Positions 6,500-56,067 of a DNA stretch of 64,000 nucleotides are shown here, one piece after another. Both the position numbers and the translations under genes were made by a program. The notes under the pieces were generated by a model that saw only the letters and a list, made by a program, of their open reading frames with translations, ran no database searches and was not told the origin of the DNA. Position 1 is the stretch's first letter, and each line of letters starts with the position of its first letter. The DNA is from an archaeon (lineage in GTDB: Archaea > Iainarchaeota > Iainarchaeia > Iainarchaeales > Iainarchaeaceae): positions 520 to 64,519 of the forward strand of contig DASRUN010000066.1 in the NCBI GenBank assembly GCA_035655435.1, read 5' to 3'.

Positions 6500-6588
6500 G
6501 CCCTCGTGGCTCAGTGGTAGAGCGGCGGTTTTGTAACCCGAAAGGGCAAACTAACCGCAGGTCGTGGGTTCAATCCCCACCGAGGGCT
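6500..6588 (+). tRNA. tRNA-Thr (TGT) with 17-nt intron
   Basis: Acceptor GCCCTCG/CGAGGGC, anticodon stem GCGGT/ACCGC, loop TTTGTA|A. Canonical 37/38 intron at 6536-6552 (ACCCGAAAGGGCAAACT, with a CCC-GAAA-GGG hairpin). Confidence 0.8.
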
Positions 6589-9145: not shown

Positions 9146-9263
9146 CCCTCCTTAGCTTAGTAGCTAAAGCGTCCGGCTGTAGAACGACATTACTCCTTTG
9201 GGAGAGAAAATAATCGCAAGTGCGGTTACCGGAAGACCCCCGGTGCAAATCCGGGAGGGGGGA
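9146..9263 (+). tRNA. tRNA-Tyr (GTA) with 45-nt intron
   Basis: Acceptor CCCTCCT/AGGGGGG (one G-U), D stem GCTT/AAGC, anticodon stem TCCGG/CCGGA, loop CTGTAG|A. Intron at 9183-9227. T arm CCCGG-TGCAAAT-CCGGG. Confidence 0.8.
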
Positions 9264-22170: not shown

Positions 22171-22258
22171 ATAGCAAACGGGAAAGGTAATTTTATAGAT
22201 TCATTTCCGTTTGCTATCTAGCAGACCGCATTTATGCCGTAACTTTCGTGGTCTGCTA
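22171..22258 (+). ncRNA. two-hairpin element, copy 1 (candidate small RNA)
   Basis: ATAGCAAAC-N29-GTTTGCTAT, then (TA)GCAGACC-N22-GGTCTGC(TA), followed by TGATTTTTT. Homologous to 52254-52341. Strand inferred from the downstream T-run only. Confidence 0.35.
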
Positions 22259-28148: not shown

Positions 28149-29613
28149 TTTGGTTGACGGTTGGGCGGTAATAGATTCTTATTTTAGGGACAAAAACATT
28201 GCCCAAATGGAAATAGATTCGTTCAACCAGTTTGTGGAAAAAAAACTCGATGAAATAATTGCGGAAAACAAGGAAGTTGTTCCGAAAATCGAGGAAGTAA
28301 AAGTTCAATTTGACAAAATTTCCGTTATAAAACCGCGCATAGTGGAAGCTGACGGCTCTCCTAGAAACGAATTTTTCCCAATGGAAGCAAGATTGAGAAA
28401 TAGAACTTATTCAAGCCCGATTTTTTTGACAATGAAACTTTTGAGAAGAGATGTTGAACAGGATAAAAAACAAACTTACATCGGAGAGCTTCCTGTAATG
28501 TTGAAAAGCAATTTGTGCTGGTTGAACGGTAAAACAAACGAAGAACTTATTGAAATGGGCGAAGATCATCTTGATTTCGGCGGATATTTCATTGTAAACG
28601 GTTCTGAAAAAGCGTTGATGACACAGGAAGTTCTTGCATCCGACAGGGTTATTGTTTCTGAACAATCCGATAGAATTGTCGCGGAAGTTATTTCAACAAG
28701 GGGAGCTTTCAAAGGAAGGGTTAGAATTCTTAGAACTCCTGACGGAATTTTGAATGTTACATTTCCTGCTTCCCCTAGAAAATTAAAATTATTTGTTTTG
28801 CTCAAAGCACTTGGATTGAGAAGCCCGCAAACAATTAAGGAAGCTTTCATTGAACAACAGGAAATTCAAAATGATGTTTTGATTAACATTGAAAATCTTT
28901 TGGTTAAGAGCGAGAAGGAAGCACTTGATAAAATCGGAAAGTTTGTTGCACCCGGACAAGTGGAAGAATACAGGTTGAGAAGAGCCCAGGAAGTTATTGA
29001 TGCATTCTTATTGCCGCACATTGGACAGGATCAAAAAGACAGATTGGCAAAAGCATATTATTTGGTTATGATGGCAACCAAGGCAATTGAAAAAGCCTAC
29101 AAATTGAGAGAAGAAGATGACAAAGATCATTACGCAAACAAGAGATTGGAATTGTCGGGAAAATTAATGGAACACTTGTTCAGATATTCTTTCAAATATT
29201 TCATCAAGGATTTGAAATTCCAAATTGACAGAACAGTTACAAGGAGAAGAAAACTTAACATTTCAACAATTGTAAGACCGGGCGCGGTTTCGGAAAGAAT
29301 CAGATTTGCAATGAGCACAGGAAATTGGATTGGACGCGCTACAGGAGTTTCAAAATTCATGGATCGAGTAAATTATTTATCTCCATTAACGGATTTGAGA
29401 AAAGTAAAAAGCCCATTGGATAAAAACAGGGAACTTTATGAAGCAAGAGATGTTCACGGAACGCATTGGGGAAGATTGTGCGCAATAGAAACTCCTGACG
29501 GACCGCAATGTGGGTTGGTAAAAAATCTTGCATTGATGGCAGAGGTTACGGTTGAAACGGATGAAGAGCCGATTGAAAAATTGTTGAAGGATATGGGCGT
29601 GAAATTAAGATGA
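28138..29613 (+). CDS. rpoB2: RNA polymerase subunit B'' (N-terminal half of split RpoB)
   Basis: 491 aa. IDSFNQFV..., ANKRLELSGKLM, and ends after GLVKNLALMAEV. TTG start overlaps the rpoH stop. Confidence 0.9.
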   Translation: MWFNLVDGWAVIDSYFRDKNIAQMEIDSFNQFVEKKLDEIIAENKEVVPKIEEVKVQFDKISVIKPRIVEADGSPRNEFFPMEARLRNRTYSSPIFLTMKLLRRDVEQDKKQTYIGELPVMLKSNLCWLNGKTNEELIEMGEDHLDFGGYFIVNGSEKALMTQEVLASDRVIVSEQSDRIVAEVISTRGAFKGRVRILRTPDGILNVTFPASPRKLKLFVLLKALGLRSPQTIKEAFIEQQEIQNDVLINIENLLVKSEKEALDKIGKFVAPGQVEEYRLRRAQEVIDAFLLPHIGQDQKDRLAKAYYLVMMATKAIEKAYKLREEDDKDHYANKRLELSGKLMEHLFRYSFKYFIKDLKFQIDRTVTRRRKLNISTIVRPGAVSERIRFAMSTGNWIGRATGVSKFMDRVNYLSPLTDLRKVKSPLDKNRELYEARDVHGTHWGRLCAIETPDGPQCGLVKNLALMAEVTVETDEEPIEKLLKDMGVKLR

Positions 29614-29624
29614 TTGCAAACCAA

Positions 29625-29727
29625 ATGAGTGGGACCGTAGGTCGCACAGGTCTGACGGCGAACCAAGTGCTGCCGAAGGCGCACGCTCCCTTCCGAGGAG
29701 CACGCTCGGACGCGGAGGTGTTCCCGA
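29625..29727 (+). promoter_or_regulatory. GC-rich structured leader cassette, copy A (before rpoB')
   Basis: GTGGGACC-GTA-GGTCGCAC hairpin, CACAGGTCTGACGGCG, GCTCC/GGAGC hairpin, GAGCAC word. Ends GGAGGTG + 7 nt + ATG. See findings. Confidence 0.55.
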
Positions 29728-31551
29728 ATGGTTAAGGAAGCAAAGCAGGCAAAGGTTTACATTAACGGAAGACTTATCGGATTCCATCCCGATCCCATGA
29801 AATTGACAAGGGAAATTATTGCGCGCAGAAGAGAGTCAAAAATCTCCGAGCAGGCAAATGTTGCTTTCCACGAAGATACAAATGAAGTTTACATTAACAC
29901 AGACGCAGGAAGGGTTCAGAGACCGTTGCTTGTTGTTGAGAACGGAAAATTAAAAATTACCGATGAAATTGTAAAGCAGGTTAAGGAAGTTAAAAAAACT
30001 TGGCAGGATCTTATCCGCGAGGGATATGTTGAATACCTCGATGCGGAAGAAGAGGAAAATGCTTTCATTGCTTCAAACGAAAAAGAACTCGGAAAAGAGC
30101 ACACGCATTTGGAAATTGATTCCGCAACAATTTTGAGTGTAATAAGTTCCATGATTCCTTATCTCGAACACAACATGGCGGGAAAAGCGCTTCACGGAGC
30201 AAAAATGTTCAAGCAGGCACAGGGTTTCGGAGCAAGCAATTTTAATCTTAGAAGCGATACTGAAGGATATCTTTTGCATTACCCACAAAAATCTTTGGTG
30301 AAAACAAAAACAATGCACATGGTTGGATTGAATCAGAGACCGCAAATTCAGAATCTTGTTGTTGCAATAATGCCGTATTACGGCTTCAATATTTTGGATG
30401 CAGTAATTCTCAATAGAGGCGCTGTGGAAAGAGGAATGGGAAGAAGCTCTTATTTTAGAACTTATGAAAGCGCGGAAAACAGGTATCCTGGCGGACAGAT
30501 AGATAAATTTGAAATTCCGACAGAAGAAACCGTCGGATTTTTGGGAGAAGGATTTTACAAAAAGCTTGGTCATGACGGAATAATCCAGCTTGAATCCATT
30601 GTTGAAGAAAATGATGTTTTGATTGGAAGAACCTCCCCTCCAAGATTTTTGGAAGAAATCAATGAGTTCGGTGTTGTTCAGGAAAAAAGAAGGGAAACAA
30701 GCGTTACAATAAGAAAAGGCAAGGACGGTTTTGTTGACAAAATTTTTGTAACAGAATCGGAAGCCGGAAACAAGCTTGTGAAAGTTAAAGTTAGAAGCCA
30801 GAGAATTCCCGCGCTTGGAGATAAATTCAGTTCAAGGCACGGGCAGAAAGGTGTTGTTGGATTAATTGTTCCTGAGGAAGACATGCCTTTTACACCCGAT
30901 GGAATAAAACCTGATTTGATTTTGAACCCGCACTCTGTTCCTTCAAGAATGACCATTGGACACTTGCTTGAAATGCTTGCGGGAAAAGCTTCCGCAATGA
31001 AAGCAATGCAGATAGACGGAACTCCTTTTGGCGGAGTCAAACAAGCTGAACTTGAAAAAATGCTTGATGCAGCCGGATTAAGAAAAAATGCAAAAGAAGT
31101 TTTTTACGACGGTACAACAGGAAAAAGAATCCAAGGAGAAATTTTTACGGGACCGGTTGCTTATAGAAGATTGTTCCACATGACCGCGCACAAAATACAA
31201 AGCAGAGCTCGCGGACCGGTTCAGATTTTGACAAGACAGCCTACAGAAGGAAAGGAAAAAGAGGGCGGATTAAGATTTGGAGAAATGGAAGGAGAAACAT
31301 TGGTTGGACACGGAGCGGCAATGCTTTTGCAGGAAAAATTCATTGATGATTCCGATAAAGTTACAATGTGGGTTTCCGAAACCGCGGGAGTAATAGGATT
31401 TGAGGATCAAATCAGAAAAGTGAAGAGGGTTCTTGAGGCAAATGATTCGAAAATTTATCCTGTTGAAATGAGCTATGGTTTCAAATTATTGCTTGATGAA
31501 TTGAAAGCTCTTGGAGTATATCCTAAATTGATTTTGACGGACAAGGTGTAA
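29728..31551 (+). CDS. rpoB1: RNA polymerase subunit B' (C-terminal half of split RpoB)
   Basis: 607 aa. GDKFSSRHGQKGV, NPHSVPSRMTIG, and GGLRFGEMEGETLVGHGA motifs. Confidence 0.95.
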   Translation: MVKEAKQAKVYINGRLIGFHPDPMKLTREIIARRRESKISEQANVAFHEDTNEVYINTDAGRVQRPLLVVENGKLKITDEIVKQVKEVKKTWQDLIREGYVEYLDAEEEENAFIASNEKELGKEHTHLEIDSATILSVISSMIPYLEHNMAGKALHGAKMFKQAQGFGASNFNLRSDTEGYLLHYPQKSLVKTKTMHMVGLNQRPQIQNLVVAIMPYYGFNILDAVILNRGAVERGMGRSSYFRTYESAENRYPGGQIDKFEIPTEETVGFLGEGFYKKLGHDGIIQLESIVEENDVLIGRTSPPRFLEEINEFGVVQEKRRETSVTIRKGKDGFVDKIFVTESEAGNKLVKVKVRSQRIPALGDKFSSRHGQKGVVGLIVPEEDMPFTPDGIKPDLILNPHSVPSRMTIGHLLEMLAGKASAMKAMQIDGTPFGGVKQAELEKMLDAAGLRKNAKEVFYDGTTGKRIQGEIFTGPVAYRRLFHMTAHKIQSRARGPVQILTRQPTEGKEKEGGLRFGEMEGETLVGHGAAMLLQEKFIDDSDKVTMWVSETAGVIGFEDQIRKVKRVLEANDSKIYPVEMSYGFKLLLDELKALGVYPKLILTDKV

Positions 31552-31556
31552 TTGAT

Positions 31557-31653
31557 ATGATGACAAAAATGTTGAACGAAGCTAGTGTGACCGCAGGTCG
31601 TGGCATCGAGCACCGCGAAGATGGCACACCTCTCTCAGCGAGGTGTCGCTGAA
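31557..31653 (+). promoter_or_regulatory. GC-rich structured leader cassette, copy B (before rpoA')
   Basis: Begins with a duplicate of the rpoA' start (ATGATGACAAAAA). GTGTGACC-GCA-GGTCG hairpin. ACACCTC/GAGGTGT hairpin holds the SD 8 nt before ATG 31654. Confidence 0.55.
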
Positions 31654-34266
31654 ATGATGACAAAAAGAATTGAGGGAATTGAATTCAGGATTATGGGTCC
31701 GGAGTTTATTAGAAAAATGAGCGGGATAGAAATCAAGAGCCCTGAAACTTATGATAAAGACGGCTTCCCAATGGAAGGCGGATTGATGGATAATCATCTT
31801 GGGGTTATCAATCCCGGATTGAGATGCAAGACCTGCGGAAATACAATGAAAAAATGCCCCGGCCACTTTGGACACATAGAATTGGTTAGGCCGATTGCAC
31901 ACTCTGAATTCGGAAAAAAACTTGAAATTTTGATGCAGGCAACATGCCAGAGCTGCGGAAGAATAGCAATCCAAGCTGATAAGCTTGAGCAGTTAAGGGC
32001 TTTTATCGGCGATGAAACAATTAATATTGCAAAAAAGATTTTGGCAAAAACAAAAAAAGTGAAAAAATGTCCGCATTGTACTGCTGACAGACGCGAAATT
32101 TCACTTGACAAGCCCACAAACTTTTACATTGACAAGGACAGAATTTATCCCACGCAAATAAGGGAATGGGTTGAAAAAATCCCCGACAAGGATTTGGAAT
32201 TCTTTGGTTATGAACAAGGAAAACTCAGGCCGGAGTGGTTTATCATGACCGTGCTCCAGGTTCCGCCGATCAATCTTAGGCCGAGCATTACACTTGAATC
32301 AGGAATAAAAAGCGAAGACGATCTAACACACAAACTTGTTGATATAATTAGAATAAACATGAGATTGAAGGACAACATTGATGCAGGCGCACCGCAACTT
32401 ATCATTGAAGATCTTTGGGATTTGCTCCAATATCATGTGACAACGTATTTCAACAATAATACCGCGGGAGTTCCTCCGGCAAAACACAGGAGCGGAAGAG
32501 CACTTAGAACTCTTGTGCAAAGATTGCAGGGAAAGAAAGGAAGATTCAGGTACAACTTAACAGGAAAAAGAGTTAATTTTGCGGCTCGTTCAATCATAAC
32601 TCCCGATCCAATGCTTTCAATCAACGAACTCGGTGTTCCCCAAGAAATTGCGGACAACATGACTGTTCCGGAAATAATTACAAAAGGAACCTTGACAGAA
32701 GCAAAGAACATGATCAAGGAAGGAAAAGTAATTTATGTTATCAGGCCTGATGGAATGAGAAAAAAAGTTGTTGAGGCAAACATGGAAGCTATTTTGGAAG
32801 AGCTTGATGTCGGATTTAAACTTGACAGAAAATTGAAAGACGGAGATATTGTTCTCTTTAACAGACAGCCTTCGTTGCACAGGCTTTCAATGCTCGCACA
32901 CAGAGCAAAAATTATGAAAGACAAGACATTCAGATTGAATTCAATTGTGTGCAAACCATACAATGCGGACTTTGATGGAGACGAAATGAACATGCATGTT
33001 CCGCAAACTCCTGAAGGAATTGCGGAAGCAACAGAACTAATGCTTGTTGAAAAACAAATTATTTCCCCAAGATACGGAGCCCCGGTAATAATTCTTGATG
33101 AAGACGGAGTTTCAGGATGCTTTATACTAACAATGAAGCAAACCGTGTTTGATAAGGATAAGGCGTTCCAGTTTTTCCAGTTAATGAATTTGCAGGAAAT
33201 TCCAAAGCCGGATGTCGGAAAGGACAAATATTCAGGAAAACTAATTTTCTCGCAATTGTTGCCAAAAGATTTGAACATGGAGTACAAAACCAAATTGCAT
33301 GACATAATCAAAAGAGAAGATCCAAACAACGCACTATTGAAAGACCCGTACAAGAATGATTTGATAGTTAAGATTGAGAAAGGCCAATTGAAAGCCGGAA
33401 TAATTGATGCGGTCAGTCTTGGAGAAGGAAAAGGAAAACTTGTTGATGCACTTGCAAGGGATTATCCTCCTGCAGTAATAAGGGGTTTTTATGACAGTAT
33501 TTCAAAAATAATCGGCGGTCTTATAACGGAAGTTGGAATGACAGTAAGCCTTGAGGAATACACTCCGAGCAGCAAGATACTCAGTTTGAGAGAAAAAGCC
33601 GTTGAGGAAATGAGAAAAGAAACCGATTCGTGGGTTAAAAAATTCGAGAAAGGACATCTCGATTTAATTCCGGGAAGAAATCAGGAAGAGAGCTTTGAAA
33701 TTTACATGATGAGAACAGGGGCAGCTGCAAAAGAAAAATTGCAGAAGCAAATCATGAAAGAACTTGTTGATTCTGTAATGGTTGATGAACCTGAATTCAA
33801 CAGCAATGTAATGATACTTTCAGGTTCAAGAGGAAACATCATCAATCTTGTAAACTTATCCGGAATGTGGGGACAGGCATCTGTAAGAGAGGGAAGGCCG
33901 AAGAGAGGATTCTCGAATAGATTGATCGCACTCAACAAAAGAAAGGATGTTGGAATAGATGCGGGGGGATTCATTTACCACAATTTCATGGAAGGAATGA
34001 GCTCTTATGAATACTTCTATCACACAATGGGTGGAAGACAGGGAGAAGTTGACACGGGAGTTTCAACAAAGGTTTCCGGTTATTTGTACAGAAGGCTGGC
34101 AAATTCTTTGAAGGATCTTGTTGTAAACAATGATGCAACTGTGAGAACGGCAAACAAGAATATTGTACAGTACAAGTACGGAGAAGACGGAGTCTTCCCG
34201 GAAAAAACATTTAAAGGAAAAAGCGTTTCTGTGAAAAGAGAGCTTGAAAAAATGAGAAGCAAGTGA
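31654..34266 (+). CDS. rpoA1: RNA polymerase subunit A'
   Basis: Zinc motifs [17 protein letters not shown], and the [10 protein letters not shown] catalytic loop. Start set at [11 protein letters not shown]. The ORF-track start 31600 reads through the GC-rich cassette. Confidence 0.95.
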
Positions 34267-35852: not shown

Positions 35853-36266
35853 GTGAAACTTGATTTCGAACAAATACGCTTCATAAATGCATTGGATGAA
35901 ATGACAAGGGCAACTGCAAAAGATTGCTTTATCCACGAAGGATCCATTGTTTTCTTGGTTCCTTCAAAGCACATGAGAAAAGCAATAGGAAAGAATGGAG
36001 TAACGATACAGAAAGTAAAAGAAAAACTCGGAAAACCAATAGAGCTTTTTGAGTATTATGAAAATCCGGAAGGTTTTTTCGAAAAAGCCTTTTACAAAGC
36101 GAGTGTTGAAAAAGTTGAAATAAGAAAAACAAACGACAGGACAATTGCATTTGTGAAAACAAAAAGTGATGATAAAAAAATTATTTTGAACAATTTGAGG
36201 AGACTTGATAAGATAAAAGAGCTTGCAAAAAGGAATTACAATATTGAAGAAGTTAGGATAAGGTGA
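35853..36266 (+). CDS. nusA: archaeal NusA-like KH-domain transcription factor
   Basis: 137 aa. KAIGKNGVTIQKVKEKLGK KH motif, in the conserved position before rps12. GTG start. Confidence 0.85.
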   Translation: MKLDFEQIRFINALDEMTRATAKDCFIHEGSIVFLVPSKHMRKAIGKNGVTIQKVKEKLGKPIELFEYYENPEGFFEKAFYKASVEKVEIRKTNDRTIAFVKTKSDDKKIILNNLRRLDKIKELAKRNYNIEEVRIR

Positions 36267-36292
36267 AAGATTTGTTTACAAAAGTTTTGATT

Positions 36293-36426
36293 ATGAATGA
36301 AGCTCGTGTGACCGAAGGTCGCACACCTCTGAACTCCCGGAACGCCGGGAGCACGTTGCACCGCACTTTGTGCGGGGCTAGTCCAACCGAAGGTTGGACA
36401 CCTCTGAACGCGGAGGTGTCCGCATA
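36293..36426 (+). promoter_or_regulatory. GC-rich structured leader cassette, copy C (before rps12)
   Basis: Five hairpins folded by hand: 36306-24, 36335-50, 36361-75, 36383-97, and 36396-421. The last pairs GGACACCTC with GAGGTGTCC, i.e. the SD. Confidence 0.55.
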
Positions 36427-36864
36427 ATGGCAGAAGGAGAATTTGCGGGAAGCAGTTTGCAGAAAAAAAGGAAAAAGTGGCGCAGAAAAGACAGGAAGCA
36501 CCAGAAAAAAATTAAAGCAAAAATGGGGAAAGCCAAAAGAGAAGATCTTTTGGAAGGGTCTCCGCAAGCGAAAGGAATTGTAATTGAAAAAAGAGGGGTA
36601 ACGGCAAAGCAACCTAACTCCGGAATAAGAAAATGTGTAAGAGTACAGTTGATAAAAAACGGCAAGCAGGTTACGGCTTTGGCGCCAAAAGACGGTGCAA
36701 TAAAATTTATCGATGAACATGATGAGGTTACAATAGAGGGAATCGGCGGAGCACAAGGCGGTCCAAAGGGAGATCTTTGGGGCGTTAAGTACAGGGTTAC
36801 GCATGTAAACGGAATTGCACTTGAAATGCTTAGAAAAGGAAAGAAAGAGAAAGTTAAGAGATGA
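36427..36864 (+). CDS. rps12: ribosomal protein uS12
   Basis: [36 protein letters not shown] signature. Start set at MAEGEF (the track start 36394 reads through the cassette). Confidence 0.95.
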
Positions 36865-37494: not shown

Positions 37495-37530
37495 TGAGCT
37501 GATTGAATGAAAAATTATTTTACAACTACA

Positions 37531-37626
37531 ATGAGCGAAGCTAGTGTGACCGAAGGTCGTGGCATCGAGCACCGCGAAGATGACACAGGTCTAACGGCGG
37601 ACCTCTCCGCCGCGAGGTGTCGCTGA
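37531..37626 (+). promoter_or_regulatory. GC-rich structured leader cassette, copy D (before EF-2)
   Basis: About 50 nt nearly identical to copy B. Segments AGGTC, GACCTC and GAGGTGT form mutually exclusive pairings. TGA is followed directly by ATG 37627. Confidence 0.55.
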
Positions 37627-39819
37627 ATGGCCAAAAAGGAAGATATTGTAAAGCTAGCGGAAAAGCTGATGAATACTAGAGAAAACATCAGAAACATGGG
37701 GATAGTTGCGCACATTGATCATGGAAAATCAACTCTTGCCGATTCACTTGTTGCTGCCTCAGGATTGATGAGCGAAGAGCTTGCCGGCCAACAAAGAGTA
37801 ATGGATTATGAGGATCAGGAACAAGCTCGAGGAATAACAATTAACGCAGCAAACATTTCCCTTTCGCACACACTCGACGGAAAAGATTATTTGATCAATC
37901 TGATTGACACGCCCGGGCATGTTGATTTTGGGGGAGAGGTAATTCGAGCAATGAGAGCCGTTGATGGAGTTATTCTTGTTGTTGATGCGGTTGAAGGAGT
38001 AATGCCGCAAACCGAAACAGTTATCAGGCAGGCATTAAGGGAATACGTGAAACCGGTTCTTTTCATAAACAAAGTTGACAGGCTTATCAACGAATTACAA
38101 TTATCAGAACAGCAGATGCAGGAAAGATTTGTGAAAACAATTACTCATGTTAATACTCTCATAAAAAAGAATGTTCCAAAAGAATTTGCGGAAGAATGGA
38201 CGGTAAAAGTACAGGATGGTTCTGTTACATTTGGAAGCGCATACAACAAGTGGGCGGTTTCAGTTCCAAGGATGTCAAAAACAGGGGTTTCGTTCAAACA
38301 GGTTTACGAGTATTTGAAAAGCGGCAACCAAAAAGAGTTAGCGCAAAAAAGCAGGTTAACCGAAGCAATATTGGATATGGTTACAAGACACCTTCCAAAT
38401 CCTGTGAAAGCGCAATCATACAGGATGGCGGTTATTTGGAAAGGGGAATCTGAATCAAACATTGGAATTGCAATGAAAACGTGCGACGAGAACGGTCCTT
38501 TCGCAATGATGGTTACGGATGTTAGTGTTGACAAACACTCCGGAGATATTGCAACCGGAAGAGTTTACTCGGGAAAAGTACAGAAAGGATTGAAAGTGAA
38601 ACTTATCGGAAGTCATAAAGAAGTCCAGATACAAAAAATCGGTTTGTTCATGGGCGCGGATTTTGTCGAAGCCGTCATGGTTCCTGCAGGAAACATTGTT
38701 GCGCTTGTGGGATTGAAAGAAGTTTATGCGGGAGAGACAATCAGCACGGAAGCTGTGAAGGCATTTGAAAGTTTCATGAGCGAAGTCGAACCTGTTATTA
38801 CAATTTCGATTGAGGCAAAAAACACGAAAGATCTTCCAAAACTTATTGAGGTTATAAGACAGCTGAGCAAAGAGGATCCGAATTTGAAGACCACAATAAA
38901 TCAGGATACCGGAGAGCATCTTTTGAGTGGAATGGGAGAACTTCACTTGGAAATAAACCAATACAGAATTGAACAGCATCACAAAGTTCCTATTACAGTT
39001 TCACAACCGATTGTTGTTTACCACGAAACAATAAACAAAGAATCCCCGGTTCTTGAATCAAAGAGCCCGAACAAGCACAACAAGCTCAAATTGCACGCTG
39101 AAAAAATTCCCCAAGAACTCTTGGATAATCTTATCAAAAGCCACATTGACGGAAAAATAAAACCCAAAGATAAAGAAATGATCGCAAAATTCCAGGAAAT
39201 GGGTTTTGAAAATGATTTCTCCAAAAAAATTTGGGCAGTGCACAATAATTGCATGCTAGCGGACATGACAAGGGGGATAGAGGCATTGCATGAAATTAGG
39301 GAACTTGTAATACAGGGTTTCAATGATACAATGGATGCCGGACCGCTTGCAAAGGAAAAATGCTTTGGAGTACTTATTGTAATAGAAGATGCAACATTGC
39401 ATGAAGATGCAATCCATAGGGGGCCAGCACAAATGCTTCCAACAATGACAAGAGGTTGTTATGCGTGCATGCTTTCCGCGGATGCTGTTCTTTACGAACC
39501 AAAGCAAAGGTTAACAATTACAGTTCCGGAAGATTATTTAGGAGCGGTTTCTAAAGAACTTGGTTCTAGGAGAACACAAATATCCGAAATGCGCCAGGAA
39601 GGGGATTCATCTATTATAATTGGAAACGCCCCGGTAAAGGAACTAATCGGATTTTCCAGCACTATCAGGGGGGCAACACAAGGAAGGGCCTTGTGGACTG
39701 CTGAATATGCGGGCTATGAATTGCTTCCAAGGGAATTGCAAAAGAAAACCATTGAGGAAATAAGGAAGAGAAAGGGAATGGATCCCGAAGTCAAGCCTGC
39801 TGCATTCTTTTTGGATTAA
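37627..39819 (+). CDS. fusA: translation elongation factor aEF-2
   Basis: 730 aa. NMGIVAHIDHGKSTL, DTPGHVDF, NKVDR GTPase motifs. A His-containing loop (HEDAIHRGPAQ) marks the diphthamide site. Confidence 0.95.
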   Translation: MAKKEDIVKLAEKLMNTRENIRNMGIVAHIDHGKSTLADSLVAASGLMSEELAGQQRVMDYEDQEQARGITINAANISLSHTLDGKDYLINLIDTPGHVDFGGEVIRAMRAVDGVILVVDAVEGVMPQTETVIRQALREYVKPVLFINKVDRLINELQLSEQQMQERFVKTITHVNTLIKKNVPKEFAEEWTVKVQDGSVTFGSAYNKWAVSVPRMSKTGVSFKQVYEYLKSGNQKELAQKSRLTEAILDMVTRHLPNPVKAQSYRMAVIWKGESESNIGIAMKTCDENGPFAMMVTDVSVDKHSGDIATGRVYSGKVQKGLKVKLIGSHKEVQIQKIGLFMGADFVEAVMVPAGNIVALVGLKEVYAGETISTEAVKAFESFMSEVEPVITISIEAKNTKDLPKLIEVIRQLSKEDPNLKTTINQDTGEHLLSGMGELHLEINQYRIEQHHKVPITVSQPIVVYHETINKESPVLESKSPNKHNKLKLHAEKIPQELLDNLIKSHIDGKIKPKDKEMIAKFQEMGFENDFSKKIWAVHNNCMLADMTRGIEALHEIRELVIQGFNDTMDAGPLAKEKCFGVLIVIEDATLHEDAIHRGPAQMLPTMTRGCYACMLSADAVLYEPKQRLTITVPEDYLGAVSKELGSRRTQISEMRQEGDSSIIIGNAPVKELIGFSSTIRGATQGRALWTAEYAGYELLPRELQKKTIEEIRKRKGMDPEVKPAAFFLD

Positions 39820-40976: not shown

Positions 40977-43900
40977 GTGGACAAACAACAGCAAACAATA
41001 GTGGGAATTTGCATTGCGGGAATACTCCTTGGATTGATTTTAATTGTTGTTTTTTTACAGCCAACACCGCAACAAATAGAAAATATTCCGCAAACAAATG
41101 AACAGGAAACAAACAATACACTTTGTTTGGAAAGCTGTTCTGCATGTGAATTTGATGAGGTTTGTGAAACTAACGGAATAAAAACATGCATTAATTCTAA
41201 TTGTGAAACCACAATCAATGCATGCTCGCGAGAACTTCCATTGGAATGTTACATACAAGGGCAGTCTGATTCTGAAAGCATAACAGCAAAGGCAATCCGA
41301 GAAAATAATGTGGATGAATGCGATTCGCTTGGTGGAGCGGAAGCACAATTGTGTGCAAGCGAATTTTATTACAATAAATTTTTGGAAACAAAAGACGTTT
41401 CTTTTTGCGGAAAAATAATTGATTTTAATATCAAAATGAAATGTTTGAATTATGATGATGAACCGCAAGAGCAGGAACCACTTATTCCCACAGATCTTGG
41501 AAATCGAACCGTGCAAACATCGGGAAAAAAATTGGTTGAAAGTGGGAAGAATTTTGCAACCTATGAAATTTCAGGAGACCCTGATAATGATCCTTCAACA
41601 ACCGCAATGGTTACGGAAGTTTATTTTGAACCGGAAGAAATTCGCTTTGCAACCCTGTCAGTTCCCGTTTCTACAGTAACTGGCATGTCACCAAACTATG
41701 GCAGCAATTCTTATGAATGGATTGACAATGTTCTGACAGGCAGGGCATACTGCCGAACCCTCCTTGGCTTTTGCGCGCCTGGCTGCGATTGCTCAATCGA
41801 GGGGGATGCACAAAGGACTTTTTCAAGCGATGAAACAACTGAAACAATTAATCTTCCAAACTGGCAATCGCAAAACTCAGTTGAGGTTGAGTTGGGCAGC
41901 GGCATGTGGGGAAATTTTGTGATATCCAGATTGATTTTCGGGCTGCTTAACTTTGAAACAGCGCCGTGGCATTCAAATACTTCAATTAACATAAAAAAAT
42001 CCGGAACAGGATCTTTCTTTTCAACGGGTTTTCTAGGAACAGGAACCTGTTTTGAACCTGATGTAGAAAGCAGGTGCAATGCAATTGGAGGAACTGAAAT
42101 CAGGCATCTAATGAGCGGTGTAACTCCGGGAACCGGATTGGTTTTGGATCCGGATCCAACAGGAAATGTGGATGTTACAATAAAACTAGACCACGAGGTT
42201 AGCGGAGATTCTTGGGGAGTTTTTGTGAATAGATCAGGCTATGTCTCGCCTAATCCAAGAGTGGTTGTGTACATTAATTGGAACAGGAACGATGATCCAC
42301 CGACAATAACCGCGCAAGTTTGCTCTGTTACGGAAGGGGATGAAACAATAATTTCCTGTGCACCAACATTGCCAAATGACACTCAACTATTAAAGTGCAT
42401 TACAACTTACTCCGACCCTGAAGGGGATAGAGCTGCGGAAGCATATTCTTGGGAGGCGAATGGAAGCGCGGTTCCGTTTGAAGAAAATCAAACCATAAGT
42501 TTAGGCGGTTTTACCAGAACTAATCCAAACACATTCAGATGCACTTTTACAGTAAACCCTTTAAGCCCTTCAACACAACCTGATGTGAGCGTTACTTCCT
42601 TACTCGCAACAGTGGACGCGGTTTCCAACAGCGGAGGCCTTGTTCTCCACATGCCGTTTGACACGGATTTCAGTGATTCTTCAACATTTAATAATAATGG
42701 AACACCGATGAACGGAGCAACAATAACAGAAACCGGAAAACTCTGCGGAGCGCTAGAGCTTGATGGAACAGATGACTTTGTTGAGGTTTTGGATTCGGGT
42801 TCGCTTGATATTGAGAATGAAATAACAATCGCCGCCTGGGTTAACACAGAGAATCTCAATGGAACAAGAATGATTGTATCAAAATATTTCCGACAAGGTT
42901 TCAGAGATAATTATGCAATGATGCTTGTATCAAGTAGTTTATTCGGAAGCTTGGAGAAAAATTGTTTTAGATGCCTGAGCGCTTGGTTCGGAACGGATAG
43001 AGATGTTCCTGCAAACACGTGGAAACATGTTGCATTAACGTATGATGGAGCTCAGGCAAAATTGTATGTGGATGGGCAACTAAAAGAAACATTGGATGAA
43101 ACAGGTGCGATTGGAACAAATAACGAGCCATTGCATATTGGAGCGGAAAAAGAAACTAGCTTCAGAAACCCAAATCCGCCATTTCAAGATTTTTTCTCCG
43201 GAAAAATTGATGATTTGAGAATTTACAGCAGGGTGCTTTCACAATCAGAAATACAAGCGCTCACGCTTGAAACATGCAATGAACCGGAACCTGAAACACC
43301 AACATGTACAATAGAAAATGCGAATCCCGTAAACATTCCACTTGGCGGAACAACTGATGTTACGATTTCGCTTGAAAATTTTACAACACCTCCAAGTAAT
43401 TTCGGAAGTCTTGCATGTGGAGATGGAGCAACTGCATCACGCATAAGCTGCACGCAAACCCAATGTACATTTAGATGCTCGAATTATAATTCCGCGGGAA
43501 CATTTACAATCAACAATCTTTCCGGATTGACAAACGGATCTGAAACCGCGAACTGCAATGGTTCGGCAATTGTTAATGTTCAGGCGCCGATAAATACGGA
43601 TTGTTCAGATAATGGCGGAACATGCAGGAACACTTGCCCTATTTCGGAAGAACGAGTACCGGCATTCACGTGCTCCAATCCTTCGCAAATTTGTTGCATT
43701 GATGTTTGCCCGGATTCTGTGGAAGTGAATGGTTCGTGCGGATGCGGAGGAGTAATAATAAACGATGGTTATTGTTGTGAAGGAATTCCTTCAAGCACGC
43801 AGTGCTCCGAGCCCACACAGAATAATTTGGTTGGAATTAATCTTGAAACGGATAAAAAAGAGTACGGAAACGAAAATGCCGCAATCACTGTTACGGTTGC

Positions 43901-44264
43901 AAAGAAAGCAATTGGATTTGGCGGAAATGCAGGGGTTGCATTGAAGGCAATAAGGGAAAAGGATTCAATGCAAATAACTCTTCCTGTTTCCTCAATGAAT
44001 TTTAATTTTGCGCTAACCGATCCGGTTGGGGAAACAGAACAACAATTGTTCACATTGAACACCGGATCATTGCAATCCGGAGTTTACACTTTGACGGCTG
44101 AAATTACACAAACAATGCCGGAAAACGATACAATAAGGGCGGATAACATTGATTCGGAAACAATAATAATCAAACCAAGGGCAACGGTTGCCGCGCCCGA
44201 AATACACCCAATATTTGTAGTTTTGATTGTATTCGCTGTTTTGATGATCCTTAAAAGGAACTAA
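40977..44264 (+). CDS. giant surface protein with LamG/concanavalin-like domain, Cys-rich modules, CARDB-like region and conserved C-terminal anchor
   Basis: 1095 aa. N-terminal TM helix. LamG_3-type segment LVLHMPFD...ITIAAWVN...WKHVALTYDG..AKLYVDG...GKIDDLRIYSRVLS. C-terminal VAAPEIHPIFVVLIVFAVLMILKRN. Confidence 0.65.
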   Translation: MDKQQQTIVGICIAGILLGLILIVVFLQPTPQQIENIPQTNEQETNNTLCLESCSACEFDEVCETNGIKTCINSNCETTINACSRELPLECYIQGQSDSESITAKAIRENNVDECDSLGGAEAQLCASEFYYNKFLETKDVSFCGKIIDFNIKMKCLNYDDEPQEQEPLIPTDLGNRTVQTSGKKLVESGKNFATYEISGDPDNDPSTTAMVTEVYFEPEEIRFATLSVPVSTVTGMSPNYGSNSYEWIDNVLTGRAYCRTLLGFCAPGCDCSIEGDAQRTFSSDETTETINLPNWQSQNSVEVELGSGMWGNFVISRLIFGLLNFETAPWHSNTSINIKKSGTGSFFSTGFLGTGTCFEPDVESRCNAIGGTEIRHLMSGVTPGTGLVLDPDPTGNVDVTIKLDHEVSGDSWGVFVNRSGYVSPNPRVVVYINWNRNDDPPTITAQVCSVTEGDETIISCAPTLPNDTQLLKCITTYSDPEGDRAAEAYSWEANGSAVPFEENQTISLGGFTRTNPNTFRCTFTVNPLSPSTQPDVSVTSLLATVDAVSNSGGLVLHMPFDTDFSDSSTFNNNGTPMNGATITETGKLCGALELDGTDDFVEVLDSGSLDIENEITIAAWVNTENLNGTRMIVSKYFRQGFRDNYAMMLVSSSLFGSLEKNCFRCLSAWFGTDRDVPANTWKHVALTYDGAQAKLYVDGQLKETLDETGAIGTNNEPLHIGAEKETSFRNPNPPFQDFFSGKIDDLRIYSRVLSQSEIQALTLETCNEPEPETPTCTIENANPVNIPLGGTTDVTISLENFTTPPSNFGSLACGDGATASRISCTQTQCTFRCSNYNSAGTFTINNLSGLTNGSETANCNGSAIVNVQAPINTDCSDNGGTCRNTCPISEERVPAFTCSNPSQICCIDVCPDSVEVNGSCGCGGVIINDGYCCEGIPSSTQCSEPTQNNLVGINLETDKKEYGNENAAITVTVAKKAIGFGGNAGVALKAIREKDSMQITLPVSSMNFNFALTDPVGETEQQLFTLNTGSLQSGVYTLTAEITQTMPENDTIRADNIDSETIIIKPRATVAAPEIHPIFVVLIVFAVLMILKRN

Positions 44265-44278
44265 TAGACGCTGGCGGA

Positions 44279-47443: not shown

Positions 47444-49066
47444 TTGAATGTCATGCACAAAAAAAATATTTTAATGCTTTTTCTGATTTTAACAATATTT
47501 TTAATTGGTTTTGCAACCGCGGAAACTTCAATTCGATGCCAAATAGGTGCTAGTGGAACGTTATTTGGGGTGAGCGCACCAAGCAATGCGCATGTAGCAA
47601 TAAGCACGAGTGAATACGCTAACAAGGTAGGATGCACCGCAGATACCTCAGCACCTGCGTGTAGTGATCCTAGCTCTGCAATAGCACTAAAACTTTCAAG
47701 TGCAACAAACGCGCACGCTGAATCACCAAATCTAAGCAATTACACTCAAAACATTTGCATAAAAGCATCGGCAACAAACCAACAAACTTATTGTTATGCA
47801 CTCAATGATTGTCCAAGCGACTTTATAGGATTGGTAAATCTTTATGGGGAAACAGGGCTAGTGAATGGGCAACTCACTGTAACCAATGCGCTTGTTGGAG
47901 CATACGCTGCCGGCGCACCACACATTTGTTGTGGATTGAGAGACTTAGACGATTCACCTGCTACAAGCTGTACAATAACGGCAAGCCCAACAACAATAGA
48001 AATAGGAGAAACATCAAGCATTGCAGTCACTTGTTCTAATGCATTAGGCACAACACAATGCCCAAGCGATTTGCAAATAGTTTCAACCGCCCCTGCAATA
48101 GCAACTTATGATTCAACCACTACCCAATTAACAGGAGTAAGCGCAGGAGACACAACAGCAAGAGCGACAAGCGTTTCAATTCCTGCAGTAACTTGTGTTT
48201 CGGGAACAGTAACGGTTACTGATACAATAAACAATTGTGTGATTGATGCACAAGCAACAGAAGCATGCATTTGCGGAACAGAAACTGCAAACCCGGGACA
48301 GTTCTGCTGTGCAACCGGAGTTTCTGATACTGCATGCACCACACCAACACCGAATTGTGTTGAAGGAGAAAATACAACCGGAGAAATTTGTTCATGCAAT
48401 GGTACTCCGGTTCCGGATGGAGAATATTGTTGTAGCGGAGTTGCAAGCACAGTATCATGTGATCAGCTTTGTCCGCAAGGACAAATAACAACAACTTGTA
48501 GTTGTGAAAATCAAATCAGAAATTCTGGAGACGGTTACTGCTGCAGCGGAGTTTTCCAAACAACACAATGTACAAACTCCAGTCTGAACCATGTGAAAAT
48601 CAGTGCTTTGAGACTTGAACAAACAGAGTTTTTCAAAGATTCGGAAGATCCGATTACATTTGCAATTGATGTGGAAAGAATTGACGACAGTGTAACAACA
48701 GGATATTTGGAGGCTTATTTGATACACAACATAAATCAAACCCAAACTCAGATTTTTGCGGATCCAACTAATGAATTGGAAGTTAGTTTTGTTGACGCAG
48801 AACCAATGACAATTCCCGTAAGTTTTCCAACAACATCGCTTGCAACTGGCAGTTATAGGCTTGTTGTTCACATAACATCAGAATTTGACAGAGATGGAGC
48901 TGGAAATATTGCAAATGATGAAGGGAAAGTTGATGATAATACAAAATCGGCAAGTATTCTAGTGAGAAGCGGTCCTGCCGGAGGCCCGGTAGCAGCTCCT
49001 GAAATACACCCGATATTTATAGTGTTCATACTCTTCGCGGTTTTAATGATCATTAAAAGGAACTGA
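47444..49066 (+). CDS. surface protein with three CxC...GYCC modules, CARDB-like region and conserved C-terminal anchor
   Basis: 540 aa. Signal peptide. Modules at 48266-48571. The C-terminal VAAPEIHPIFIVFILFAVLMIIKRN is nearly identical to that of 40977..44264. Confidence 0.6.
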   Translation: MNVMHKKNILMLFLILTIFLIGFATAETSIRCQIGASGTLFGVSAPSNAHVAISTSEYANKVGCTADTSAPACSDPSSAIALKLSSATNAHAESPNLSNYTQNICIKASATNQQTYCYALNDCPSDFIGLVNLYGETGLVNGQLTVTNALVGAYAAGAPHICCGLRDLDDSPATSCTITASPTTIEIGETSSIAVTCSNALGTTQCPSDLQIVSTAPAIATYDSTTTQLTGVSAGDTTARATSVSIPAVTCVSGTVTVTDTINNCVIDAQATEACICGTETANPGQFCCATGVSDTACTTPTPNCVEGENTTGEICSCNGTPVPDGEYCCSGVASTVSCDQLCPQGQITTTCSCENQIRNSGDGYCCSGVFQTTQCTNSSLNHVKISALRLEQTEFFKDSEDPITFAIDVERIDDSVTTGYLEAYLIHNINQTQTQIFADPTNELEVSFVDAEPMTIPVSFPTTSLATGSYRLVVHITSEFDRDGAGNIANDEGKVDDNTKSASILVRSGPAGGPVAAPEIHPIFIVFILFAVLMIIKRN

Positions 49067-49133
49067 TATACGCTGAAGGGCGGCCGCTTGTTGAATAACT
49101 GAAAACATCGTAGTCGTTATATTTAAATATTAG

Positions 49134-52253: not shown

Positions 52254-52341
52254 ATAGCAAACTGGATAAGTAATTCTGTTTATTTGTTGCAGTTTGCTAT
52301 CCGGCAGACCTCAATTAATACTGAAAGCTTGCGCGGTCTGC
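52254..52341 (+). ncRNA. two-hairpin element, copy 2 (candidate small RNA)
   Basis: ATAGCAAAC-N29-GTTTGCTAT, then (G)GCAGACC-N24-GGTCTGC(C), followed by TGATTTTTAAATCTTTTT. TTTATT lies about 30 nt upstream. Confidence 0.35.
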
Positions 52342-54199: not shown

Positions 54200-54436
54200 A
54201 TGGGCACTATCACAATCAATGTGGGCGATGAATCGGAGGCAAAATTCAGGAAGGCCGCAAAGGCGGTTTTTGGAACAAAAAAGGGCAGCCTCGGAAAGGC
54301 CGCAAGTGAGGCATTTGAAGAGTGGTCGAATAGGGAAATACAAGGAAATGCGGCAAAAATGCTCGATCTTTTGGAAAAGGGATTTAAAATGGGCAAAGTC
54401 AAATATCGTTCCAGGGATGAACTGCATGAAAGATGA
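54200..54436 (+). CDS. small antitoxin (VapB-like)
   Basis: 78 aa from MGTITINVGDE. Overlaps the downstream PIN ORF by 11 nt. Confidence 0.45.
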   Translation: MGTITINVGDESEAKFRKAAKAVFGTKKGSLGKAASEAFEEWSNREIQGNAAKMLDLLEKGFKMGKVKYRSRDELHER

Positions 54437-54866
54437 ATTTTTCGTGGATACGAATATCCTTGTTTATGCCTTTGACGAATCCGAACCTGCAAAAAGAAAA
54501 ACGGCAAAGCGGATTGTTGAGGAAGCCACAAGCGGAAAGGTAAAAGGGGTTGTTTCGAATCAGGTTTTGGGAGAACTTTATAATGCGCTAACAAGAAAGA
54601 TCGAAAAACCGATTGATACGCGTTATGCACAGATAATTGTAAACGGCATCCTGGATTCGAAAAACTGGGGGAAAGTTGATTATAAATCAATAACCGTGAG
54701 CAAAGCAATAGAAACATCAATAAATGAGAAAAAGCCTTTTTGGGATTCTGTCCTAATTGAAACAATGCTCGAAAATAAAATTTACACTTTAATAACCGAA
54801 AATACGGCGGATTTCAGTAACCCAAAAATAAAAATCGTGAACCCTTTCAAAGAGCAAAAAACCTGA
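54426..54866 (+). CDS. PIN-domain toxin (VapC-like)
   Basis: MKDEFFVDTNILVYAFDE, then SNQVLGELYN and FWDSVLIET (conserved acidic residues). The track start 54219 is an upstream extension. Confidence 0.65.
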   Translation: MKDEFFVDTNILVYAFDESEPAKRKTAKRIVEEATSGKVKGVVSNQVLGELYNALTRKIEKPIDTRYAQIIVNGILDSKNWGKVDYKSITVSKAIETSINEKKPFWDSVLIETMLENKIYTLITENTADFSNPKIKIVNPFKEQKT

Positions 54867-54918
54867 CTTGTACCCGAGTATTTTTGTTTAAATCACTTTC
54901 TTACAATAATTCTTTCTT

Positions 54919-56067
54919 ATGAAAAAGTTCATCAAAAATTACGCCTTGAACCCCGATAAAAATACGCTTGAACAATTCAAACATTGTTATGAACAAACTT
55001 TTGTGGAAAAAGCCGCTTTGATGCCGGACGCACATTCCGGGTATGTTGCTCCGATTGGTTCTGTTCTTGTTACAAAGGATTTTGTTGTTCCTTCTTGGGT
55101 TGGGTTTGATATTGGATGCGGGATGACCGCCGCGAAAATTAAGGGAAAAGAAATTCTTGAAAAAATTCGCGCGAACGAAGAACAAATTTATAGTGCGGTT
55201 AGAAAAAAAATTCCAATGGGAAAAGGAAAAACAAATAATGCAAATGATATAACTCCTGAAACAAAAAAAGAATTCAAAGAACTTATTGAAAAATTCAAAA
55301 AGGGATCTCACAATAAAGGCGTCCTCCAGTTTTTGGAGACAACCGCAATAAAGCATCTTGGATCACTGGGGCATGGGAATCATTTTGTTGAAATTGGTTA
55401 TTCGGATAAAAATGATGCATGGATTGTTGTCCACTCGGGTTCAAGGGGGGTTGGATTTAAGGTTGCAACAAATTATATGAAAAAGAGTGCGGGAAGGGAA
55501 AAAGAATTTGAACAAACATTTCCGATTCATAAAGACAGTGATGTTGGAAAAGAGTATTTGAACGTGCTTGATTTTGGATTGAGTTTTGCTTTGTTGAATA
55601 GAATGGAAATGATCCGCAAAACAATTATTGCGTTAGAGGATGTTCTCAAAGAAAAAATTGAGTGGGAATTGTGGGTTAATAAAAACCACAATCACGCGGT
55701 TGAGGAAAACGGTTTGTTTATTCACAGAAAAGGTGCAACTCCGGCAAAGAAAAACGAGAGAGGAGTTATTCCCGCAAATATGCGCGATGGCTCTTTTTTG
55801 GTTGAAGGAAAAGGAAACAAGGATTTTTTGGAGAGTTCTTCTCACGGAGCAGGGAGAACAATGAGCAGGACAGACGCAAAGGAAAAGTACTCTATGAAGG
55901 AATTTGAGGAAAGCATGAAAGGAATTCGCGGAACAATAGAAAAAGGAACTTTGGATGAGGTTCCTATGGCGTACAAGAATATTTTTGATGTGATGGAAGC
56001 GCAGAAAGAATCAGTGAAAGTTGTGGAACATATAAAACCTATAATTAATTGGAAAGGTAGCAACTAA
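54919..56067 (+). CDS. rtcB: RtcB-family RNA 3'-phosphate ligase (short form)
   Basis: 382 aa. MPDAHSGY, GHGNHFVEIG, HSGSRG, NHNHA, SSSHGAGR motifs. Confidence 0.85.
   Translation: MKKFIKNYALNPDKNTLEQFKHCYEQTFVEKAALMPDAHSGYVAPIGSVLVTKDFVVPSWVGFDIGCGMTAAKIKGKEILEKIRANEEQIYSAVRKKIPMGKGKTNNANDITPETKKEFKELIEKFKKGSHNKGVLQFLETTAIKHLGSLGHGNHFVEIGYSDKNDAWIVVHSGSRGVGFKVATNYMKKSAGREKEFEQTFPIHKDSDVGKEYLNVLDFGLSFALLNRMEMIRKTIIALEDVLKEKIEWELWVNKNHNHAVEENGLFIHRKGATPAKKNERGVIPANMRDGSFLVEGKGNKDFLESSSHGAGRTMSRTDAKEKYSMKEFEESMKGIRGTIEKGTLDEVPMAYKNIFDVMEAQKESVKVVEHIKPIINWKGSN

Follow-up and report, generated by a model that had tools for sequence, protein, structure and literature searches.

The question raised by this locus is why two closely similar 29-nt units, each able to form a hairpin, stand between the NusA and S12 genes of an archaeal operon, and whether selection there acts on the hairpin or on a peptide read across it. 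The window analyzed was a stretch of 64,000 nucleotides (positions 520 to 64,519 of the forward strand of contig DASRUN010000066.1, GenBank assembly GCA_035655435.1; coordinates below count from its first letter). The host was an AT-rich (39% GC) DPANN archaeon of the Iainarchaeota (Diapherotrites) from groundwater, whose S12 was 90% identical to that of the nearest genome in the species collection. The hairpin pair was located within the operon rpoH-rpoB''-rpoB'-rpoA'-rpoA''-L30e-NusA-S12-S7-EF2, and four junctions of the rpoB''-to-EF2 operon corresponded to GC-rich islands, termed elements A, B, C, and D (GC 58-63% vs. a window mean of 39%). With moderate confidence, we interpret these islands as small palindromic insertion elements akin to repetitive extragenic palindromic sequences (REP), Rickettsia palindromic elements (RPE), or miniature inverted-repeat transposable elements (MITE), lineage-specific and tolerated since they are translated through.

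Unit 1 (GTGTGACCGAAGGTCGCACACCTCTGAAC, 36306-36334) and unit 2 (GTCCAACCGAAGGTTGGACACCTCTGAAC, 36381-36409) of element C matched exactly the sequences given in the original prediction. The differences between them were confined to positions 3, 4, 5, 15, and 17, all in the 8-bp stem, and 8/8 pairs were kept in both units. The compensatory changes that had been claimed were present (pair 3:17 from G-C to C-G, pair 4:16 from U.G to C-G, and pair 5:15 from G-C to A-U, going from unit 1 to unit 2), and the loop GAA and the tail ACACCTCTGAAC were indeed the same in the two units. When five substitutions were placed at random in a simulation, they all fell in the stem and left every pair intact with P = 1.5e-4 (0.4% conditional on stem placement). 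The units had also been described as tandem, which they are not: they were direct repeats whose starts lay 75 nt from each other, and two further hairpins separated them. Element C and its parts, including the Shine-Dalgarno (SD) sequence and the bridging open reading frame (ORF) considered below, were as follows.

36267-36426, + strand: element C, insertion between the NusA stop codon (36264-36266) and the S12 start (36427); GC-rich core 36296-36426; GC 0.58-0.62
36306-36324, + strand: hairpin H1, copy C1, GUGUGACC-GAA-GGUCGCAC, the stem-loop of unit 1
36323-36329, + strand: anti-SD ACACCUC of unit 1; 10 nt, 90% complementary to 36413-36422
36334-36351, + strand: hairpin X, CUCCCGG-AACG-CCGGGAG, between units 1 and 2, found by folding and as an inverted repeat
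36361-36375, + strand: hairpin Y, CCGCAC-UUU-GUGCGG, between units 1 and 2, found by folding and as an inverted repeat
36381-36399, + strand: hairpin H1, copy C2, GUCCAACC-GAA-GGUUGGAC, the stem-loop of unit 2
36398-36404, + strand: anti-SD ACACCUC of unit 2; GGACACCUC (36396-36404) against 36413-36421, 9 nt, 100% complementary; predicted probability of the SD being unpaired, P(unpaired) = 0.08
36413-36419, + strand: SD GAGGUGU (GGAGGUGU including the preceding G), ending 7 nt 5' of the S12 ATG
36263-36427, + strand: bridging ORF uC, of 54 codons; overlapping NusA at its GTG start (GTGA, shared with the NusA stop codon) and S12 at its TAA stop (TAATG, shared with the S12 start codon)

The NusA-S12 spacer folded with -64.7 kcal/mol (z = -4.5 vs. 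shuffled sequence). The poor folding of elements A, B, and D, no better than that of shuffles, would speak for chance palindromes in a GC-rich spacer, or else an assembly artefact, as the origin of the units. The pattern of substitutions between units 1 and 2, the motif counts above expectation and the covariation controls passed by hairpins H1 and P3 (see below) all contradicted chance. As for an artefact, seven independent assemblies of the same strain (ENA, JGI, and Logan) were 99.7-100% identical and showed zero differences inside the elements, and therefore element C does not result from faulty assembly; the same comparison revealed no population variation inside the elements. We consider this explanation refuted.

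Hairpin H1, with the form N6-CC-GNA-GG-N6 (an 8-bp stem in which a C-G pair closes a GNA triloop), was present in each of the elements A-D, the other three of which were organized as follows.

29614-29727, + strand: element A, rpoB''-rpoB' junction; bridging ORF uA at 29610-29735
Modules of element A, + strand: H1 copy A1 29629-29647 (loop GUA), H1 copy A2 29667-29684 (bulged U), H4' 29692-29710, SD 29715-29721
31570-31653, + strand: element B, rpoB'-rpoA' junction; bridging ORF uB at 31557-31652
Modules of element B, + strand: H1 31585-31600 plus CAC 31625-27 (loop GCA), P3 31602-31625, anti-SD 31626-31632, SD 31640-31646
31557-31569 (5' copy) and 31654-31666 (3' copy), + strand: duplicated target ATGATGACAAAAA of element B, the 3' copy being the real rpoA' start
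37531-37626, + strand: element D, S7-EF-2 junction; bridging ORF uD at 37507-37626, its TGA abutting the EF-2 ATG at 37627
Modules of element D, 5' part, + strand: mini-hairpin H0 AGC-GAA-GCU 37534-37542, H1 37544-37559 plus CAC 37584-86, P3 37561-37584
Modules of element D, 3' part, + strand: H5 GGCGG-ACCUCU-CCGCC 37597-37612, SD 37614-37620

A total of eight H1 copies was counted in window-type elements, plus one in a relative. The sequence GACCGNAGGTC gave six matches with at most one mismatch vs. 0.92 expected, and the four exact ones lay inside elements; long CC-GNA-GG hairpins occurred six times in the window vs. 0.35 in shuffles. As the original prediction had stated, the middle base of the loop varied, with GTA at 29637, GCA at 31593, and GAA in the remaining copies, so that the overlapping ORFs had Val, Ala, or Glu at this codon. 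It had also suggested counting compensatory against disruptive changes across copies: in the seven distinct copies 98% of the cells were paired, three pairs were changed on both sides, and neither any of 500 shuffles nor any slid register came near the covariation score. The A2 hairpin and its counterpart at the same junction of a relative (L001) had a bulged U in common while being two compensatory double changes apart. P3, composed of a proximal stem of 4-6 bp, a GA/GAA internal loop, and a capped stem of 2-4 bp, occurred eight times in five genomes; 90% of its cells were paired, with four double-changed pairs and a score reached by 0/500 shuffles. H4' (6-bp stem, loop GAGCAG(C)) and H5 (GGCGR-ACCUYU-YCGCC) also co-varied, judged by inspection. 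The modules recurred across genomes and across junctions, and the module content differed from junction to junction.

A strict H1 pattern scan of metagenomes retrieved 18 matches, two of them genuine; these were minimal elements of 50 nt, made of H1, ACACCUCU, and an SD hairpin, and placed 5' of an NMD3-family gene and of the L18e gene. The copy number per genome was at least six elements in about 80 kb, and when every element was compared by BLAST with the full set of Iainarchaeota loci retrieved (handles L001 and following), no copies appeared beyond the junctions already seen. On balance, these sequences seem to form an H1 family of GC-rich, modular, non-autonomous elements of 50-160 nt, which within one clade of Iainarchaeota occupy cistron junctions and the 5' leaders of genes for information processing.

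With respect to the peptide, the reading in the original prediction of selection on the hairpin stood, on the basis of the 98% pairing of the seven distinct copies, the three double-changed pairs, and conserved nucleotides read in differing frames. H1 was read as ACC-GNA-GGU in most copies and as C-CGA-AGG in A2 and its L001 counterpart. The stretch GCGAAGAU was read R-E-D in element D but A-K-I in L113A, and L113A and L113B were 92% identical in nucleotides with bridging ORFs in different frames; in neighboring modules, too, conserved nucleotides were read in two or three frames among copies. Functional small leader peptides (e.g., ...VTEGRTPLN...), to which the hairpins would be incidental, might be suspected from ORFs open from the upstream stop to the next start and from the recurring stretches TGL(A/T)A(D/N)L and EDxT. 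This explanation is nevertheless highly improbable in view of the different frames in which conserved nucleotides were read (A1 vs. A2; D vs. L109 vs. L113A; L113A vs. L113B) and of the compensatory stem changes between units 1 and 2, which were non-synonymous in C1 vs. C2 (R-V-T vs. S-P-T and G-R vs. G-W). In addition, the C-terminal ends of bridging peptides diverged (ARCR vs. AEVSA) through a 1-nt indel while the SD hairpin was retained, and the 54-aa uC peptide had no homologue among 5.8 billion proteins. The sequence comparisons support the view that selection acts on H1 as a nucleic acid rather than on a peptide.

The original prediction was incomplete on three points: it foresaw neither that the hairpins belong to an insertion nor that the tail ACACCUC is complementary to the SD of the next gene, and the overlapping ORF is not irrelevant, a bridging frame being kept at 14/14 of the insert-bearing junctions tested. 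These ORFs started -4 to +12 nt from the upstream stop, often with an NTGA overlap, and ended -16 to +8 nt from the next start (-41 in one case); the resulting stop-start distances in the window were -8 to +1 nt (negative values denote overlap). With shuffled insert interiors a bridging ORF appeared in 1-65% of the trials per junction, giving a product of about 1e-9, a figure to be read with the fact that some junctions are kin by descent. In the uC insert, the other two frames held three and two stops. All copies of the elements were sense-oriented, and antisense copies would be at least equally free of stop codons, so that an open frame alone cannot account for the uniform orientation.

Evidence of insertion was obtained from the relatives. 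The NusA-S12, S7-EF2, and rpoB'-rpoA' spacers had 4-35 nt in L001, L003, L106, L107, and L109 vs. 102-160 nt in the window, and the S7-EF-2 spacer, the site of element D, had 17-25 nt in relatives; L108 displayed short NusA-S12 and S7-EF2 spacers, yet an insert of 118 nt at rpoB'-rpoA'. Since most relatives were short-spaced at the same junctions, the window elements are insertions. Related GC-rich inserts were found in relatives with S7 76-82% identical, namely at rpoB''-rpoB' in L001, at rpoB'-rpoA' in L108, and at rpoB''-rpoB' (two) and S12-S7 in L109; others occurred at S12-S7 in L008 and L111, at two junctions in L112, and at three junctions in L113.

Direct duplications of the junction were significant at 8-9 of 16 inserts (winB, L001A, L108B, L109A twice, L109S7, L008S7, and L111S7), with a variable length of about 12-29 nt. 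The duplicated stretches often held the last codons and stop of the upstream gene, or else the SD together with the start codon of the gene that follows. On either side of element B stood the rpoA' start sequence ATGATGACAAAAA, duplicated exactly over 13 nt, or over 17 nt with one mismatch (0/1000 shuffles), and the empty rpoB'-rpoA' sites in L001 and L109 read ...ATGATGACAAAA / ATGATGATGAAAAG. In L109:1823-2090, three consecutive copies of the last ~20-29 nt of rpoB'' (...GVKLK*) were separated by two GC-rich inserts that differed from each other, an arrangement pointing to a junction that was entered repeatedly.

A 20-80 aa N-terminal extension of S7 was observed in many relatives (proteins P0009, P0016, and P0020-P0026). 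The DNA of this extension in L110:5363-5520 and L111:6818-7000 was GC-rich and in frame, and that of L110 contained GCCCCC-GAA-GGGGGC and UCCCC-GCA-GGGGA hairpins plus an H4-like stretch. From their sequence, the S7 extensions of L110 and L111 look like the same element family taken into coding sequence.

Inteins and cassettes were observed in the same operon of relatives: inteins in EF-2 (whose length is then about 1240 aa) in L008, L110, and L112, an RpoB'' intein in L112 and, between rpoA'' and L30e, a Fic cassette in L109 and an RHH/DUF3368 cassette in L113. Judging from these inteins and cassettes, selfish elements often enter this operon in the clade.

The way in which the insertions could be tolerated was considered from the sequences around the next start codon. 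Each of the elements A-D ended in GAGGUGU, the strongest SD match of the region, 7-9 nt 5' of the next start codon; on the + strand of the window, the single occurrence of this heptamer outside the four element ends was within the EF-1alpha gene. The tail ACACCUC following H1 was complementary to the element's own SD, which is that of the next gene, and in unit 2 GGACACCUC paired perfectly with GAGGUGUCC. In partition-function folding, P(unpaired) of the SD was 0.02-0.39 in 5/6 elements, with the SD paired to an upstream ACCUC; the 3' arm of the unit 2 H1 overlapped the extended anti-SD helix (GGAC). Translational coupling in bacteria and Haloferax decays beyond stop-start distances of 30-40 nt, and in one accepted model the upstream ribosome unfolds the structure around the downstream ribosome-binding site (PMC12548453). 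The elements resemble that model in their predicted sequestration of the downstream SD in a hairpin and in an upstream ORF ending on or near the next start, with NTGA or TAATG overlaps (PMC12548453); in contrast with it, the upstream ORF is here a short frame made by the inserted element, and the cassette recurs at many junctions.

In the mechanism that we propose as the most economical one, the hairpins and the anti-SD:SD helix would hold the downstream ribosome-binding site closed in the polycistronic mRNA, and a ribosome re-initiating on the bridging ORF would melt H1 and the anti-SD helix and terminate atop the start codon that follows. In this way S12, rpoB', rpoA', and EF-2 would still be translated in step with the cistron before them, even across an additional 100-160 nt of RNA. 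An untranslated insert would uncouple the cistrons, which the bridging ORF would avoid; coupling through this ORF could make the insert harmless and permit its persistence. Stable sense-strand hairpins may also shield the mRNA from exonucleases, and the elements would spread as DNA by a route leaving junction duplications of variable length.

The overlap of H1 with the extended anti-SD helix in unit 2 is also what would be expected of a dedicated cis-regulatory RNA, in which a trans-acting protein (a ribosomal protein or other RNA-binding factor) would bind H1 as its operator and, by tipping the equilibrium of H1 with the anti-SD:SD helix, set the translation of a regulon of rpoB', rpoA', S12, EF-2, L18e, and NMD3. 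The conserved loops with co-varying stems, the sense-strand specificity of the motif and the placement of 6/6 window-type elements before information-processing genes, including the two from the unbiased pattern scan, point in the same direction. However, the same genes lacked the element in close relatives, as did EF-1alpha, S10, and L3-L4-L23-L2-S19-L22 within the window itself; the module content varied among junctions, the junction duplications pointed to insertion events, and no Rfam match was obtained. We regard this possibility as rather unlikely.

Whether the hairpins would act as RNA or as DNA was approached through the strands. The sense strand folded better than the antisense in 16/18 elements, and the pentamer C-GNA-G appeared 38 times in sense, twice in antisense, and 11 times in shuffles (3.4-fold enriched). 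This bias of folding and of C-GNA-G fits a transcript-level role, and the hairpins probably act in the mRNA. It is known, on the other hand, that C-GNA-G, including CCGAAGG, is an extraordinarily stable mini-hairpin in DNA, found at primase sites, its RNA version being much weaker (PMC13037366, PMC3201870). Coding-strand C-GNA-G mini-hairpins could accordingly be recognized as single-stranded DNA in mobilization, priming, or repair (compare the hairpin ends of IS200/IS605 and REP, and ssi sites), the RNA features being by-products of selection against harmful insertions; the one-strand, 3.4-fold enrichment of a motif that is a hallmark of very stable DNA mini-hairpins and occurs in primase recognition sites (PMC13037366, PMC3201870) and the DNA-level insertion implied by the junction duplications would agree with this. 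The likeness extends to the C-G pair on the GNA triloop of d(GC-GNA-GC) and ssiA, to CCGAAGG, the exact tip of H1, and to GCGAAGC, the 5' mini-hairpin H0 in D, L008, and L113 (PMC13037366). The known structures, however, are DNA at phage and plasmid replication and priming sites, whereas those described here lie in transcribed operon spacers with RNA or DNA as the acting form. The window ORFs scanned included neither a HUH/Y1 transposase nor any other candidate enzyme, the duplications varied in length (13-29 nt) whereas IS200/IS605 and REP make none, and the constant orientation with the transcript, together with the tie to SD, anti-SD, and bridging ORF, fits an RNA function. We consider this DNA-level role improbable, ranking it after the regulatory operator and the latter after the tolerated, translated insertion element, with which both are compatible.

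Compared with known systems, the closest analogue of this insertion element was found in the RPEs, palindromic hairpin repeats of ~100-150 bp in reduced genomes, inserted compatibly with translation and read by ribosomes, with a secondary role for the peptide (PMC10969869). In-frame translated palindromic inserts would be present here as well (the 14/14 bridging ORFs and the S7 extensions in L110 and L111), and the in-frame S7 extensions of GC-rich hairpin sequence make the analogy stronger. The comparison is one of features, and of an archaeal host with Rickettsiales. Differently from RPEs, the window elements are not fused to a host protein; their bridging ORFs are distinct and come with a stop, SD, and anti-SD, and the elements lie at cistron junctions, flanked by long and variable junction duplications.

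With REP/BIME and ERIC sequences, which along with MITEs rank next in similarity, the elements have in common GC-rich imperfect palindromes in transcribed operon spacers, multiple copies, and a mosaic build, and by analogy a REP/BIME-like effect on mRNA stability is likely. REPs, in contrast, are untranslated and usually 3' of genes; they have a conserved 5' tetranucleotide and a RAYT (Y1 HUH) transposase and no target duplication, and none of these REP hallmarks was found here, the search for a HUH protein covering the window ORFs. All H1 stems began with AGU/CGU, and no guide sequence of the GTAG type was established. MITEs such as Correia elements and those of Sulfolobus are likewise short, non-autonomous, multicopy, co-transcribed sequences with target-site duplications that alter the expression of their neighbors (PMC10969869); the present elements differ from them in having no terminal inverted repeats and a duplication of variable rather than fixed length, and no parent insertion sequence was found, the ~50 window ORFs scanned including no transposase.

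Several observations weigh against the interpretation as tolerated insertion elements. No junction duplication was detected at window elements A, C, and D, and no terminal inverted repeats joined the ends of elements A-D, which contained only internal hairpins. A Pfam scan of ~50 window ORFs revealed no transposase, integrase, or reverse transcriptase. Elements A, B, and D gave z = -0.5 to -1.0 in folding, and many of the ~20 element copies collected were related by descent, so that the covariation amounts to few independent events. The translation of the bridging ORFs and the occlusion of the SD are themselves predictions. Finally, all window-type copies preceded transcription or translation genes, which could instead indicate a dedicated regulatory role.

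A bolder version of the insertion reading, which we put forward only tentatively and with considerable doubt, would see in these sequences an as yet undescribed type of archaeal mobile element, a self-contained "coupling cassette" that specifically enters stop/start junctions and gene starts, duplicates the junction, brings anti-SD, SD, and hairpins, and survives by being translatable in several frames. The sense-strand C-GNA-G hairpins would then be recognized by a dedicated trans-acting factor, either an enzyme of mobilization or a regulator that binds RNA and governs the synthesis of ribosomes and RNA polymerase, and the duplications of variable length would point to an unusual route of insertion, RNA-templated or repair-mediated. 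What is unusual is the combination of junction placement, junction duplication, own SD and anti-SD, and frame-independent bridging ORFs; no description of such elements in DPANN archaea surfaced in a full-text literature search, which is no proof of absence.

If the tolerated-insertion reading is true, selfish or neutral DNA can settle in the most conserved and tightly coupled operons of a streamlined DPANN genome by staying translatable and re-supplying the ribosome-binding site, and the elements would offer natural test cases for the tolerance of archaeal coupling to inserted RNA structure. With regard to annotation, the elements may be the source of short ORFs and of N-terminal extensions that would not be expected in these genomes. 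Several short co-varying hairpin motifs are also contributed for DPANN archaea (the GNA triloop, the GA/GAA internal loop, and the GAGCAG loop).

Other identities for the elements were considered and discarded. The window elements had no Rfam match at the gathering threshold or at E <= 10, with ribozymes, riboswitches, ribosomal protein leaders, and rRNA fragments covered; for riboswitches and ribosomal protein leaders, the orthologous junctions of relatives were moreover empty. A C/D-box small RNA was rejected by inspection, as the likeness to AUGAAUGA...CUGA was missing from most copies and the would-be guide region was a hairpin. Inspection of element B showed no pairing between the element ends of the kind sought for a bulge-helix-bulge (BHB) intron, the substrate of tRNA endonuclease. 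The P3 sequence ...UC-GA-GCC...GGC-GAA-GA-U... matched both strands of the kink-turn Kt-7 (GGCGAAGA and GAGCC), and the gene for L30e, relevant to kink-turns as sites bound by L7Ae/L30e, is present in the window operon. A kink-turn was nevertheless rejected, because covariation at pairs 3:27 and 4:26 dictates a Watson-Crick register in which the GA after GAA is paired. Differently from Kt-7, covariation supports for P3 a 6-bp Watson-Crick helix with a GA/GAA internal loop (2x3) and without a non-canonical stem, and the kink-turn register would leave U.C, G.A, and U.U mismatches. Two near-identical viral contigs of IMG/VR (L114:1527-1545 and L115:1240-1258; 50% GC) carried the identical hairpin of 19 nt, GTGTGACCGAAGGTCGCAC, with TTTCTT after it; its flanks showed no similarity, and the hairpin, which resembles an unrelated terminator and matches at chance level, was not accepted as an element copy.

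Some minor observations were made in the window and its counterparts. Scaffold L099 presented a run of 10 N at position 5177 (window 31625), inside the P3 hairpin of element B, which suggests that this hairpin disturbs assembly or sequencing. A second repeat family, unrelated to the H1 elements, was found at 22171-22217 and 52254-52300, consisting of an AT-rich long hairpin (TAGCAAAC...GUUUGCUA, 10-14 bp) followed by a conserved AGCAGACC. Its two copies differed by compensatory changes, folded with z of -3.2 and -6.3, and were placed 5' of a geranylgeranyl-reductase-like gene and of EF-1alpha, respectively. Both tRNA genes were over-long (6500-6588, 89 nt, and 9146-9263, 118 nt, the latter found by Rfam and missed by ARAGORN) and presumably contain introns. 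An 89-nt repeat of 82% identity (44185-44273 and 48987-49075) lay at and just beyond the 3' ends of the large ORFs 40977-44264 and 47444-49066, and is probably a C-terminal segment common to both. A PIN-domain gene and RtcB were located directly 3' of EF-1alpha and S10 (54219-56067); RtcB stood at the equivalent place in relatives, with archease in L110 and L113 and without it in L108.

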